Source of the DNA: a virus
Virus genome (UHGV): UHGV-0205323
Reading direction: 5' to 3' (one strand)
DNA: 26,989 nt
Shown here: positions 425-12,501 of the stretch, one piece after another
Numbering within the stretch: position 1 is the stretch's first letter
Layout of the letters: each line of letters begins with the position of its first letter
Position numbers and translations under genes: made by a program
Notes under the pieces: generated by a model
The model's input: the letters and a program-made list of their open reading frames with translations, nothing else
Databases searched by the model: none
Told to the model about the DNA's origin: nothing

Positions 425-1048
425 ATGTCATCAATCCGCTTAACTACGAGAATGAAAGAGGAAATCGCTCGTAACGCTTTAATTAAGTCTGGGGTTTTCA
501 CTGAACTTGAAGAAGTAACAAAGTTAAAGAACCAGCTTGCACTTGACGCCAGAGTTATTGCGTTTGGCGGTAAAAAGAAAACTGAGGAAGTGGATCGGTT
601 ATCATCCAAGTTAGCAGCTATAAGTGAAGAACTTGAGAAGATGGGATGTTCATTTTACTCATGCGATGTTCGTTCTGCTTCGATTTATCTGACTGTATCT
701 GGAAGAAGGGTTGGCTGGCATTCATACGGAAAAGACGGCAACGGTGAAGATATATTGCTCCCCACCCCAGAAAAAGATAAATGCATGTTTGACGCAGAAC
801 ACGAAATAACAAAAAGGTTTGATGAAATCTGCGCATTGCAACAAAAACTTGAAGCCAAGAAAAAGGATATCGAATCAAATGTATGGGCTGCTTTGAACTC
901 AGTCACAACAGTTAAGCGACTTATTGAAGTTTGGCCTGAAAGCAAAGAATTGCTACCAAAAGAAGCAGATAAAGCAAGTACAGCACTTCCTGCTTTACGG
1001 GTAGAAGATTTGAATAAGATGATTGGACTTCCTTCCGAGGCCGCATAG
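425..1048 (+). CDS. hypothetical early protein (207 aa from ATG 425; six-frame track starts at TTG 410)
   Basis: Long ORF in early operon orientation; GAGAGG RBS upstream of ATG 425; followed by a hairpin plus T-run; no domain recognised. Confidence 0.5.
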   Translation: MSSIRLTTRMKEEIARNALIKSGVFTELEEVTKLKNQLALDARVIAFGGKKKTEEVDRLSSKLAAISEELEKMGCSFYSCDVRSASIYLTVSGRRVGWHSYGKDGNGEDILLPTPEKDKCMFDAEHEITKRFDEICALQQKLEAKKKDIESNVWAALNSVTTVKRLIEVWPESKELLPKEADKASTALPALRVEDLNKMIGLPSEAA

Positions 1049-7217: not shown

Positions 7218-7466
7218 AATAGCGGGTAAAATATTTTTCACATCTAAAAAACACCATTCTAATCAATCCCCTGCTGCGTCAAGTAGATGTCTGCAGGGGA
7301 CACCATTTATCAGTTCGCTCCCATCCGTACCAGTCCGCAAAATCCCCTGAATATCAAGCCTTCCGTAGATTCACAGTTCGTAATGGTTCGCGTCAGATCG
7401 TTGACAGCCGCACACCATGACGGGTAAAAAGTGGATAAAATAATTTTACCCACCGGATTTTTACCC
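7212..7466. repeat. cluster of GGGTAAAAW 9-mers in both orientations spanning the xis stop to the int start; candidate Int/Xis binding sites or attP arm sites
   Basis: GGGTAAAAT at 7212-7220 and 7224-7232; GGGTAAAAA 7422-7430; GGATAAAAT 7433-7441; inverted ATTTTACCC 7443-7451 and TTTTTACCC 7458-7466; an 8-bp inverted repeat TCCCCTGC/GCAGGGGA at 7267-7274 and 7293-7300 lies between the two groups. Confidence 0.55.
7401..7430 (+). promoter_or_regulatory. candidate int promoter overlapped by the GGGTAAAAW repeats
   Basis: Consensus -35 TTGACA at 7401-7406; weak -10 TAAAAA at 7425-7430 (18-bp spacer); no experimental support. Confidence 0.3.
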
Positions 7467-8624
7467 ATGCTCACTGTTAAGCAGATTGAAGCAGCAAAGC
7501 CGAAAGAAAAACCATACCGCCTTCTCGATGGTAATGGCCTGTACCTTTATGTCCCTGTATCAGGGAAAAAGGTATGGCAGCTTCGCTACAAGATTGACGG
7601 TAAGGAGAAAATCCTGACCGTCGGAAAATATCCGCTTATGACTTTGCAGGAGGCAAGGGATAAGGCATGGACTGCGAGGAAAGACATCTCGGCTGGCATC
7701 GATCCGGTAAAGGCGAAAAAGGCTTCGTCTAACAACAATTCCTTTTGTGCGATTTACAAGGAATGGTACGAGCACAAGAAGCAAGTCTGGTCAGTAGGCT
7801 ATGCAACTGAACTTGCCAAAATGTTTGATGACGACATTTTACCCATCATCGGCGGTCTTGAGATTCAGGATATTGAGCCGATGCAACTGTTGGAAGTAAT
7901 CCGCAGATTTGAAGATCGCGGTGCAATGGAGCGAGCCAACAAAGCACGCAGAAGATGCGGCGAGGTTTTCCGTTACGCTATTGTCACCGGAAGGGCTAAA
8001 TATAACCCGGCACCTGACCTTGCTGACGCCATGAAGGGATACCGCAAGAAGAACTTCCCGTTTCTTCCTGCAGACCAGATCCCGGCATTCAACAAAGCAC
8101 TGGCAACATTTTCAGGAAGTATCGTATCGCTCATTGCGACCAAAGTTTTACGCTACACAGCCCTAAGAACGAAAGAGCTTCGTTCCATGCAATGGAAGAA
8201 CGTCGATTTTGAAAACAGGATTATCACTATCGACGCCAGTGTGATGAAGGGACGCAAAATTCATGTGGTTCCGATGTCGGGCCAGGTAGTTGAACTTCTC
8301 ACTACGCTAAGCTCCATCACTAAACCAGTATCAGAGTTTGTTTTTGCCGGGCGCAACGATAAGAAGAAGCCAATCTGCGAGAACGCGGTATTGCTTGTGA
8401 TCAAACAAATCGGCTATGAGGGTCTGGAAAGCGGTCACGGATTCAGGCATGAATTCAGCACAATTATGAACGAGCACGAATGGCCTGCTGATGCTATTGA
8501 AGTGCAACTGGCACATGCCAACGGCGGATCTGTACGCGGGATTTACAACCATGCTCAGTATCTGGATAAGCGCAGAGAAATGATGCAGTGGTGGGCGGAT
8601 TGGCTTGATGAAAAGGTGGAGTGA
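7467..8624 (+). CDS. int: tyrosine integrase, P4-type (DUF4102 N-terminal domain)
   Basis: N-terminus MLTVKQIEAAKPKEKPYRLLDGNGLYLYV...WQLRY typical of P4/CP4-57-like integrases; C-terminal catalytic region with HGFRH and conserved R/H/Y context; start placed at ATG 7467 rather than the track's 7431. Confidence 0.85.
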   Translation: MLTVKQIEAAKPKEKPYRLLDGNGLYLYVPVSGKKVWQLRYKIDGKEKILTVGKYPLMTLQEARDKAWTARKDISAGIDPVKAKKASSNNNSFCAIYKEWYEHKKQVWSVGYATELAKMFDDDILPIIGGLEIQDIEPMQLLEVIRRFEDRGAMERANKARRRCGEVFRYAIVTGRAKYNPAPDLADAMKGYRKKNFPFLPADQIPAFNKALATFSGSIVSLIATKVLRYTALRTKELRSMQWKNVDFENRIITIDASVMKGRKIHVVPMSGQVVELLTTLSSITKPVSEFVFAGRNDKKKPICENAVLLVIKQIGYEGLESGHGFRHEFSTIMNEHEWPADAIEVQLAHANGGSVRGIYNHAQYLDKRREMMQWWADWLDEKVE

Positions 8625-8643
8625 TCCACCTTGACTATCGAAT

Positions 8644-8700
8644 GGCACAAAGCCTTGCAATCCAGTGCAAAGCTTTGTGTGCCTCAGTTTTGTCTCATTA
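8644..8700 (+). terminator. putative terminator / structured element downstream of int
   Basis: Long imperfect hairpin GGCACAAAGCCTTGCA / TGCAAAGCTTTGTGTGCC followed by T-rich TCAGTTTTGTCTCATT; a separate perfect 8-bp hairpin AAGGTGGA-GTGA-TCCACCTT (8613-8632) spans the int stop codon. Confidence 0.45.
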
Positions 8701-8751
8701 TTAAAATAATTCCGTCAACCTCACTACCTTCATAATATTGAATTTTTTTAA

Positions 8752-10413
8752 TTACCTCCATGCAACAATTGTAACTGGTATAGTTACTGACTGACTTGTA
8801 ACTATAAGTCCTGTTGTTGTATCAACAATTCTTATTGCAAACCCGGTAGAATTATAAGTGTCGGCGTATACTTGATATTTAAAAGGAGATGGTACTGCAC
8901 CTGAATGAAAATCAGGATGTATAATTACTTTTGAGGCATAAAAACCAATTGTAACTATACCTCCCGGATTAACTGTTGTTGTCGATATATAATCCGGCGA
9001 GTTGTGTATCTTATCGTTAACCCTTATTATCTTACCATTTCCAATCATGCTAAATATAGTAAATACACCATTTGGGTCATTAAGATAAACTGTTGCATTA
9101 TCTTCTACTCTTATATGACCTGCTGTTCCGTCATCATTAAGCAAGACAGGGTTGTTAATGTAAGTTACTGAATTTCCTCGACATCTAAAATGATAAAAAT
9201 TAGGTCCGTTTGGATTAACTCTATTGAAGTGTGGATTGTTATATGTGACTACTGAAGATGATGCTACCAGTATTGATTGTGTTCCTGCTGTCATTTTTCC
9301 ATCTGTAGAATCCATCTCAAAATTTGGTGAGTCGAAAACAACCCCGGTAGAGTTTGTATCAATATGATGGAAGTAAGAGTTATAAGACCCATCATGCCCC
9401 ATATTAAAATTAATCCACTTAGACCCCTTTACACCACGAAGTCTTAGTGCAAATGCTTTGAAGTTTGCCGCATAACAGTTTATATATGTATTTTCAATTA
9501 TCTGGCCGTTACTCGAAATATCAAAACCAATTCTATTCCCATTTGCTCTGATGTTTGTAAACACATTGGAGAAGTCAGCAGGACCAGCTTTATAACCAAC
9601 ATCAAAGTAGTCTAAATACATATTAGAGAAAGTGCAGTTTACTGTCTTATTTACTCCGGTAAGATCAAGACCAGAACCAGATCCAATTGGTTGACCTCCG
9701 CTAACGGCACCCTCAACAATTAAACCTATATTTGCTATTACTGTTCCTCTTAATTCATTTCCAGATGCAGATATTCCTGAAATCCCGCTAGGTGTTTTTA
9801 TGCTTGATGTAGATAGAGAATCACCAATTAATCCAAAATTATTCTTAAGTGAAATGTTACCTTCCCATTCCCCTGGAGGAACCTTAAGGGTAATGGGAAT
9901 GCTACCAGATGCTATATAATCATTTACCGGGGAAAGATCATTACCGATAACACCAAATCCTCTTATATCTCCTAATCTTCTATAATCAGTAATAGAAATA
10001 AAATCCTGAACGGACTCCCCAGTATCGTAACAAACTAAAGATGCTCCAATATTAGACGCAAGCCTTTTTTCAAGCTGATCCGGGTCGTACTTCAGTACAT
10101 TCGGAAAATAAAACTGCTGCGCACCGTACGCATCATAAACAGCCATAGAATGGCCTTGCACGGTAACGAATTTGGCAATCTGTCCGTTATATACAGGGTA
10201 ACCAGCAGCGTTAATGATGATTGGCTGGGATACAGGAACGTGAGAGCCGTCTTCGTTCTCCACATAAACCTGAATCTGGTTTTCAGGATTTACCGGGTCA
10301 GTGTCAATTTTACCGATATAAATTTTGCCATTGGCTACGGCTTTAAAAGAACGAGCCATAGTGAAGAGTTGCGAAGGCATCGATACGATCACATTGGCTG
10401 TAATGTCTGTCAT
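8752..10413 (-). CDS. tailspike protein: P22 gp9-like N-terminal head-binding domain fused to a divergent receptor-binding domain
   Basis: N-terminal ~110 aa ([11 protein letters not shown]...[22 protein letters not shown]...[13 protein letters not shown]...VLKYDPDQ) closely matches the P22 tailspike head-binding domain as recalled; the remainder is Gly/Asn/Ser/Thr-rich and unlike P22; last gene before the int-proximal end. Confidence 0.85.
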
Positions 10414-10471
10414 TTAATTTGCTCCAGATACAAGGAATCGCCGCAGCATGGCTACGGTGAATTTTGGGCAT

Positions 10472-10496
10472 AAAAAAACCCAGCCGAAGCTGGGTC
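10472..10496 (-). terminator. rho-independent terminator between ant and tailspike (minus strand)
   Basis: Minus-strand stem ACCCAGC / GCTGGGT with TTCG loop followed by TTTTTTTAT. Confidence 0.6.
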
Positions 10497-11728: not shown

Positions 11729-11965
11729 ATGTCACGCGAAGAGCCGCAAATAAATATCAGGATTTCCAAAGAGTTAAAGGCAAAGGTTAAAGCCAGGGCG
11801 CAACATAACAAGCGTTCCATGAATGCTGAAATAATACAGATTATCGAAGATGCTGTTTGTGGTAGATCGCTTAATAGCAATGAATTTGCTCAGAAAGAGG
11901 CTGACAAATTCAGGGATGCGCTACTTGAAACACTGAAAACCATGTATGGTAAGGATGAAAAATAA
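11729..11965 (+). CDS. mnt: Mnt-like ribbon-helix-helix repressor
   Basis: N-terminus MSREEPQINIRISKELKAKVKARAQHNKRSMNAEIIQIIEDAV parallels P22 Mnt (ARDDPHFNFRMPMEVREKLKFRAEANGRSMNSELLQIV, recalled); divergent from arc-ant. Confidence 0.75.
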   Translation: MSREEPQINIRISKELKAKVKARAQHNKRSMNAEIIQIIEDAVCGRSLNSNEFAQKEADKFRDALLETLKTMYGKDEK

Positions 11966-12501
11966 TGCTGCACACAATTCATTTCTTATGCCCCGTTAAC
12001 ACTGCCACTGTTGGGCAACTTCAGAACCACTGTCTCACCGCATTATCTCAAGGCGCAACTGAATTAAATATCCATATATCAAGTCAGGGAGGGGAAACTG
12101 CCGCTGGTTTTACTGCGTATAACTTTCTTAAGTCACTCCCTGTTACCGTTAGAACTCACAACATAAGCAATGTTGAATCCATAGCTAATATCGTTTTCCT
12201 GGCTGGCTCAGAACGTTTCGCAAACCCATTATCAAGATTCCTGTTACATCCTCTATTATGGGGCTTTGCCACCCCAGCCGCCGACCATGCCAGATTGAGA
12301 GAGTACGGGAAATGCCTCGATAACGATCTTGATCGCTTCGTTGAGACGTTCAATATCGACATCGGAACCCATATTAGGTGGGCATCCCTGATAGCAGACT
12401 CGACCATTTTGGATGCTAACAAGGCTCTTGAGCATGGCATAATTAATTCCATAAAAACTGCAAGGCTGGTATCCAATCAGGCAAACTGGTGGGTTGTTTG
12501 A
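11965..12501 (+). CDS. ClpP-fold serine peptidase-like protein, translationally coupled to mnt
   Basis: ATG overlaps the mnt stop (TAATG); sequence aligns by eye to the E. coli ClpP core (IHISSQGGETAAGFTAYNFL vs [20 protein letters not shown]; Ser in SNVESIANI at the GQAASMGA position; His in FLLHPL at the MIHQP position; C-terminal LEHGIINSI vs VEYGLVDSI). Confidence 0.6.
   Translation: MLHTIHFLCPVNTATVGQLQNHCLTALSQGATELNIHISSQGGETAAGFTAYNFLKSLPVTVRTHNISNVESIANIVFLAGSERFANPLSRFLLHPLLWGFATPAADHARLREYGKCLDNDLDRFVETFNIDIGTHIRWASLIADSTILDANKALEHGIINSIKTARLVSNQANWWVV

Follow-up and report, generated by a model that had tools for sequence, protein, structure and literature searches.

The virus genome UHGV-0205323, a stretch of 26,989 nucleotides (nt) that was analysed at full length and is called the window below, carries on its minus strand (8752..10413) a gene whose product starts like the tailspike of phage P22 and then departs from it. 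The locus raises the question of which parts this tailspike is built from, where they came from, and which host glycan the protein would recognise. The favoured reading, with a probability of about 0.78, is a mosaic tailspike of a temperate P22/Sf6-like (Lederbergvirus-type) Escherichia podophage, in which an anchor domain is joined to an imported β-helix, most likely glycan-cleaving and most probably directed at O-antigen, and to a C-terminal cap. An earlier note on this DNA had described a chimera of two parts, a conserved head-binding domain and a divergent receptor-binding module. Its chimerism holds, as DNA homology ends at the hinge between them, whereas its number of modules has to be raised to three, the last 82 residues having a separate history. 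The parts of the gene are as follows.

8752..10413, minus strand: complete tailspike gene (from the list of open reading frames (ORFs)), 553 residues plus stop, ATG start, N-terminus MTDITANV like P22
10075..10413, minus strand: module 1, head-binding (particle anchor) domain, residues 1-113, final ...NVLKYDPDQ hinge (PF09008; Sf6/P22 structures)
9997..10074, minus strand: neck/linker, residues 114 to ~139, beginning of the swapped cassette, with an 'L-ASxxGAS' motif and short helices modelled at low confidence
9019..9996, minus strand: module 2, predicted right-handed parallel β-helix, residues ~140-465, putative polysaccharide-binding and depolymerase domain
9316..9318, minus strand: codon of Glu366 (N-F-E motif), by conservation the best candidate for a catalytic carboxylate
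8755..9000, minus strand: module 3, C-terminal β-sandwich, residues 472-553, separately exchangeable (Limestonevirus matches; identity incongruence)
8699..8751, no strand: AT-rich 3′ flank, part of the swapped cassette (integrase-linked homology ends at ~8698; guanine-plus-cytosine (GC) content 0.34-0.37)

The anchor domain and the phage backbone

Residues 1-113 match PF09008 (Pfam Head_binding) over profile positions 1-113 of 113 with an E value of 6.7e-67, and a PDB sequence search finds the entries 7sg7, 2vky, 8tvr, and 1lkt for the anchor. It is ~92% identical to the solved Sf6 gp14 (counted from the printed alignment) and ~73% identical to P22 gp9 (Foldseek figure), which bears out the earlier assignment of the first ~110 residues to the P22 head-binding domain. 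Matches to the PDB sequence of P22 gp9 stop at residue 116, and beyond residue ~122 the protein has no PDB sequence match and no further Pfam (E 0.1 or better) or NCBIfam model. The NCBIfam scan of the protein gave no match, and PHROG matches are restricted to the anchor.

The gene block runs in the order P22_Tail-4, Phage_stabilise, Phage_tail_NK, P22_gp7, Inj_translocase, Phage_P22_gp16, Arc, KilA-N/P22_AR_C, and then the spike. The P22-type genes gp4, gp10, gp26, gp7, gp20, and gp16 thus lie upstream, followed by the Arc/Mnt/Ant region, and the tailspike sits where P22-like spikes do, closing the block of virion genes behind those for the ejection proteins and behind immI (arc/mnt/ant). The backbone is 94-96% identical to the Escherichia phages CurroJimenez_Bas106, Louie, and Dewey and is related to Sf6.

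Breakpoints and composition of the imported block

A megablast of the gene against 50,697 phage records and the complete genomes of 5,426 E. coli strains yields over 1,100 matching records, all of them limited to gene nt 1 to ~340-368 (85-96% identity); no record in either set covers 80% or more of the gene. Compared with the nearest backbone relative, Bas106, homology extends through the integrase gene (int) to 8619, is absent from 8620-10074, and is back at 10075-10414. The first ~75 nt downstream of int (to ~8698) are common to many phages with the same integrase type. The gap in the Bas106 homology and the end of the integrase-linked homology at ~8698 together place the imported block at ~8699-10074. 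At the protein level, all compared spikes share '...NVLKYDPDQ' and diverge directly after it; KYDPDQ is the canonical hinge of P22-family spikes. The 'boundary sequence' bsq1 of CUS-3 was considered as the junction between anchor and receptor module and ruled out, as it lies upstream of the start codon.

The composition changes between the two parts of the gene. GC content is 0.447 in codons 1-114 and 0.361 in codons 115-553, and the values at third codon positions (GC3) are 0.465 and 0.226, whereas GC at second codon positions (GC2) is higher in the C-terminal part (0.43 vs 0.32). Because GC3 falls while GC2 rises, the drop is driven by synonymous sites and is not an amino-acid effect. Among all 1320-nt stretches of the window, the one with the lowest GC lies on the module, and only 0.5% of such stretches are equally low. 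The earlier note had called the C-terminal module visibly more AT-rich and had named a uniform composition as evidence against its view; these figures substantiate the former and exclude the latter.

The module has a GC3 of 0.39-0.42 in relatives at 65-76% identity, compared with ~0.22 in the window and in L008, an integrated prophage at the argW transfer RNA (tRNA) gene that shows 96.5% DNA identity to the window from mid-anchor to the phage attachment site (attP). This gap fits a stay in a lower-GC lineage and then a fairly recent transfer. Acquisition by domain swapping, as proposed before, is borne out by the homology breakpoints; the recency that had been added to it is not datable; the unameliorated GC3 of 0.22 is consistent with it, and L008 carries the same cassette. 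No low-GC donor was found: the matches in genomes, 32-41% identical, come from Morganella (with a GC of 0.40-0.47 at the locus) and Aliivibrio.

The low GC need not signal foreign origin if it reflects an Asn/Ile/Ser-rich composition or a general trait of fast-evolving receptor modules. The C-terminal part is indeed rich in these residues and in Gly (Gly 10.9%, Asn 9.6%, Ser 9.8%, Ile 9.8%), and relatives elsewhere likewise lie below local GC, with a module GC3 of 0.39-0.42 against 0.40-0.55 in the anchor part. However, most of the shift is at third codon positions while GC2 goes up, the compositional edge falls in the same place as the homology breakpoints, and relatives at 71-76% identity are much less AT-rich than the window copy (GC3 0.39 vs 0.23). 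A purely compositional origin of the low GC is highly improbable, and import from a lower-GC source is preferred.

Fold and candidate active site of the receptor module

For residues 140-553, the predicted local distance difference test score (pLDDT) of an AlphaFold2 monomer model mostly exceeds 90; the model of the anchor is poor, as this region is covered by few alignment rows. The model consists of a long series of short β-strands that is followed by a small β-sandwich. Foldseek searches against PDB and against the BFVD viral structure library agree on the fold and return no close match. The structural neighbours of the C-terminal model have 8-17% identity each, and the best-scoring neighbours of the module are enzymatically active tailspikes. 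The C-terminal part is therefore predicted to adopt the standard tailspike β-helix depolymerase fold in a distinct sequence family, with the right-handed parallel β-helix as receptor-binding domain that characterises P22-like tailspikes.

The protein shows no match to the Pfam PhageP22-tail endorhamnosidase and no sequence similarity to gp9 residues ~125-666. The earlier statement that this part is shorter than and unrelated to the P22 endorhamnosidase is correct for the length (553 residues vs the 667-residue gp9 chain) and for the sequence, but not for the fold class, which is the same. The Gly/Asn/Ser-rich character that had been taken as typical of β-helix depolymerases is found in the composition given above.

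E366 in the N-F-E motif is invariant across 31 sequences down to 24% identity, and R222, R289, Y314, and Y407 are nearly invariant in the same set. At E366 the count is 30 of 30 sequences, relatives at 24-35% identity among them. D368 (21/27) and D250 (18/29) are less conserved. The conserved residues recur about once per β-helix rung, as would be expected for a surface or substrate groove. The Asn and Phe that flank E366 probably form a structural ladder of the helix, and Glu366 itself may act in catalysis.

The C-terminal cap as a third module

Residues 472-553 match the C-terminus of one spike in 17 Dickeya Limestonevirus records at 59% identity; in PP35 the matching spike is orf158. Within the module family, the β-helix and the C-terminal domain give incongruent identities:

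P0009 vs P0006: β-helix 96%, C-terminal domain 48%
P0009 vs P0003: β-helix 59%, C-terminal domain 88%
window vs P0003: β-helix 76%, C-terminal domain 41%

This incongruence implies that the cap is exchanged independently of the β-helix. Deacetylation of O-polysaccharide by the Dickeya PP35 spike was considered and rejected, as gp156 of PP35 is a characterised depolymerase of the O-polysaccharide (PMC6336734). PP35 gp156 has no similarity to the window tailspike. No function can be transferred from PP35, because the similar protein is orf158 and not gp156.

Neighbouring genes and the likely receptor

For relatives of the module, the genes next to the spike were examined in 15 independent loci. 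In 13 of them, a gene for O-antigen modification (gtr or Oac-like) lies downstream of the spike, mostly within ~50-500 nt. Four of the 15 carry a gtrA/gtrB(/gtrC-like) cassette directly downstream, and nine carry an Acyl_transf_3 (Oac-like) gene that is convergent with the spike and typically lies 30-50 nt past its stop. In P22, Sf6, and their relatives, gtr/Oac-type genes modify the O-antigen that the spike recognises, which is established and discussed in PMC10408124. From this adjacency in its relatives we infer an O-antigen receptor for the module.

A cassette of gtrA, gtrB, and a 494-residue gtrC-like gene (L005 9708-12600, L009 7651-10544, L019 7955-9276) recurs at 90-100% identity in three settings: a siphovirus-type prophage, a contig from IMG/VR, and a P22-like phage. 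Between the siphovirus-type prophage and the P22-like phage the cassette is 90% identical, compared with only ~70% for the adjoining receptor modules.

Several points weigh against a glycan-cleaving spike directed at O-antigen. The structure model was built from a 14-sequence alignment, and no Pfam β-helix or pectate-lyase profile matches at E 0.1 or better, so that the likeness lies at the level of the fold. Of the acidic residues, E366 alone is invariant in the wider family; classical tailspike hydrolases, by contrast, rely on two or three carboxylates. The window subtype (window, L003, and L008) has no adjoining gtr or oac gene, and for this reason the O-antigen assignment leans on relatives at 40-76% identity. 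P22-like spikes may also target capsule, as exemplified by the CUS-3 endosialidase.

Two other readings were considered. In one, the module targets a capsular polysaccharide or exopolysaccharide (K antigen, colanic acid) instead of O-antigen; the genes beside 13 of the 15 relatives are O-antigen conversion genes in P22, Sf6, and SfV-type phages, the PHROG match is confined to the anchor, and a capsular target is considered unlikely. In the other, the β-helix is a non-catalytic adhesin that binds the glycan without cleaving it or modifies it without depolymerisation. The best-scoring structural neighbours of the module are, however, active enzymes; E366, R289, Y314, R222, and Y407 at about one per rung would resemble a groove; and to our knowledge all characterised P22-family spikes are enzymes. 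An adhesin appears slightly less probable still than a capsular target. A spike that cleaves O-antigen remains the favoured reading. A more specific version is tentative, at somewhat less than even odds: that the module belongs to a hitherto uncharacterised family of depolymerases in which a single Glu is invariant, is specific for an E. coli/E. albertii O-antigen without a known phage enzyme, and came recently from a low-GC, possibly virulent, lineage.

The proposed mechanism starts with residues 1-113, which would dock the presumably trimeric spike onto the tail hub as a conserved anchor. The horizontally acquired β-helix (residues ~140-465) would then most likely bind and cleave a host surface polysaccharide, most probably the lipopolysaccharide (LPS) O-antigen of certain E. 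coli and E. albertii strains, and this cleavage would clear a path along which the virion could descend to the outer membrane. The small β-sandwich cap (residues 472-553) would probably serve trimer assembly or distal binding. A gene pool of lower GC would have supplied the cassette at ~8699-10074, with recombination at the KYDPDQ hinge.

Distribution and mobility of the module

An identical protein can be found in public databases under DAE98134.1 ('MAG TPA: tail protein [Caudoviricetes sp.]'), yet it is uncharacterised. A tblastn search of residues 115-553 against the 50,697 phage records finds nothing except the last 82 residues, in Dickeya phages, and no isolated or characterised phage spike reaches the 30% identity over the receptor-binding domain by which subtypes are delimited (PMC10408124). 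Neither a full-length nor a receptor-module homolog that is characterised was found in phage records, PDB, or the literature; a close full-length match to a characterised tailspike, which the earlier note had named as evidence against it, is thus absent from these sources. Literature searches on the protein accessions and on E. albertii with P22-like tailspikes found nothing. A sensitive blastn of the module alone against the 5,426 complete E. coli genomes gave no match, so that no serotype-labelled strain is available to name the O-antigen.

Among 5.8 billion clustered proteins, 13 match the module family. In an exhaustive HMMER search over 1.84 billion cluster representatives, only 24 clusters reach an E value of 1e-3, and 10 of these reach 1e-30. 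Further module relatives come from species-representative genomes (Morganella morganii and a metagenome-assembled genome of Aliivibrio) and from seven viral contigs in IMG/VR. The window itself matches metagenome contigs of 26-37 kb. Variants that are >90% identical occur in E. coli and E. albertii genomes, where they are annotated 'phage head-binding domain-containing protein', and one cluster member is the integrated argW prophage L008. Spikes of lysogens above this identity include MDZ9164222.1, HFI6907636.1, MCM2790822.1, MDD8554879.1, UUK88726.1, MCQ8940213.1, and WP_256909645.1.

The relatives are attached to anchors of at least four recognisable types, PF09008 (P22), PF18668 (Kuttervirus/G7C), PF03906 (T7 fibre N-terminus), or PF12571 (P2 tail-collar), or to unrecognised N-termini, and the 'L-ASxxGAS' linker motif is the first stretch that the window shares with module relatives bearing other anchors. 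The module family is rare and circulates among phages of different tail architectures. Such a distribution follows a pattern already known: in Lederbergvirus spikes, a conserved genus-level anchor is combined with a receptor-binding domain that is horizontally exchanged per O-serogroup (Pas et al. 2023, PMC10408124).

In Morganella morganii H1r, a module relative (39-41% identity) is present three times, on contigs 30, 15, and 49 (L012, L013, L014), each time at a contig end, which suggests a repeated prophage or tailocin element.

Integration site and neighbouring features

The attachment site was first assumed to lie between int and the tailspike, which the L008 prophage junction rules out. 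It lies upstream of int, between xis and int (window ~7291-7305; L008 9108-9182). The window and L008 are identical up to '...TGGTGTCCCCTGCAG'; in L008, TGGTGTCCCCTGCAG is the 3′ end of tRNA-Arg(CCT) (argW), and yfdC-, mlaA-, and fadL-like genes adjoin it. The int and tailspike genes are convergent, and the space between them holds an imperfect inverted repeat (GGCACAAAGCCTTGCA ... TGCAAAGCTTTGTGTGCC, ~8644-8683) that is common to phages with this integrase and is possibly a bidirectional terminator. The interval 8625-8751 between tailspike and int holds no gtr or oac gene, unlike in Sf6, P22, and most module relatives.

On the other side of the tailspike, a further feature comes from a consensus scan:

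10477..10496, minus strand: hairpin resembling a terminator, located between the antirepressor gene and the start of the tailspike

An inserted gene for an HNH endonuclease (L008 5486-5974) separates ant from the tailspike in prophage L008. Over its first ~150 nt (window 10273-10400), the L008 tailspike gene is only ~60% identical to the window, compared with ~97% over the remainder. This step is a second breakpoint, within the head-binding domain and adjoining a possible homing endonuclease. The immI region of the window contains a ClpP-family protease gene (11965-12501, plus strand, 178 residues, PF00574) that adjoins the Arc/Mnt-like repressor genes and is an unusual passenger in a P22-like phage. 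A second low-GC island lies in the early region, where an ORF of 207 residues with an Nmad5 domain (425-1048, plus strand, PF18757) has a GC of 0.41 and a GC3 of 0.34.

Significance and comparison with known systems

Tailspike receptor modules set phage host range and are used in serogroup-specific detection reagents, engineered tailocins, and chimeric phages. The rare new module is a candidate source of an extra glycan specificity for such uses. E. coli and E. albertii lysogens carry it, it passes between anchors of podo-, sipho-, and myo-type, and the locus is a clean natural case of three-module exchange with sharp, mappable breakpoints. The general understanding of tailspike evolution or function is unchanged by the finding: a new receptor-binding subtype with an independently mobile cap falls within the well-established modular tailspike scheme and is not conceptually surprising.

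The window tailspike shares the head-binding domain, the KYDPDQ hinge, and the genome position with Sf6 gp14, P22 gp9, and HK620 gp9, as well as the layout of anchor, β-helix, and C-terminal cap and presumably the mode of action. It differs from them in its receptor-binding part, which has no detectable sequence similarity to theirs, and in its length of 553 residues compared with 623-710. TSP2 of CBA120 (Kuttervirus) and the Acinetobacter phage depolymerases (Belisarius gp86 and AS12 gp42) are 12-17% identical to it, with other anchors, substrates, and hosts. The resemblance to Dickeya Limestonevirus PP35 orf158 and its LIMEstone1 homolog is limited to the C-terminal 82 residues (59% identical); the remainder is unrelated, and orf158, which carries the annotation of a particle-attaching spike, is likewise uncharacterised.

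In comparison with the E. coli O-serogroup subtypes (PMC10408124), where Lederbergvirus prophage spikes track the host O-serogroup, the module lacks an isolated-phage match beyond the last 82 residues and is absent from the 5,426 E. coli genomes. It follows the same design of a genus-level anchor with an exchanged receptor-binding domain, and by its sequence relationships it appears to be an undescribed receptor-binding subtype.
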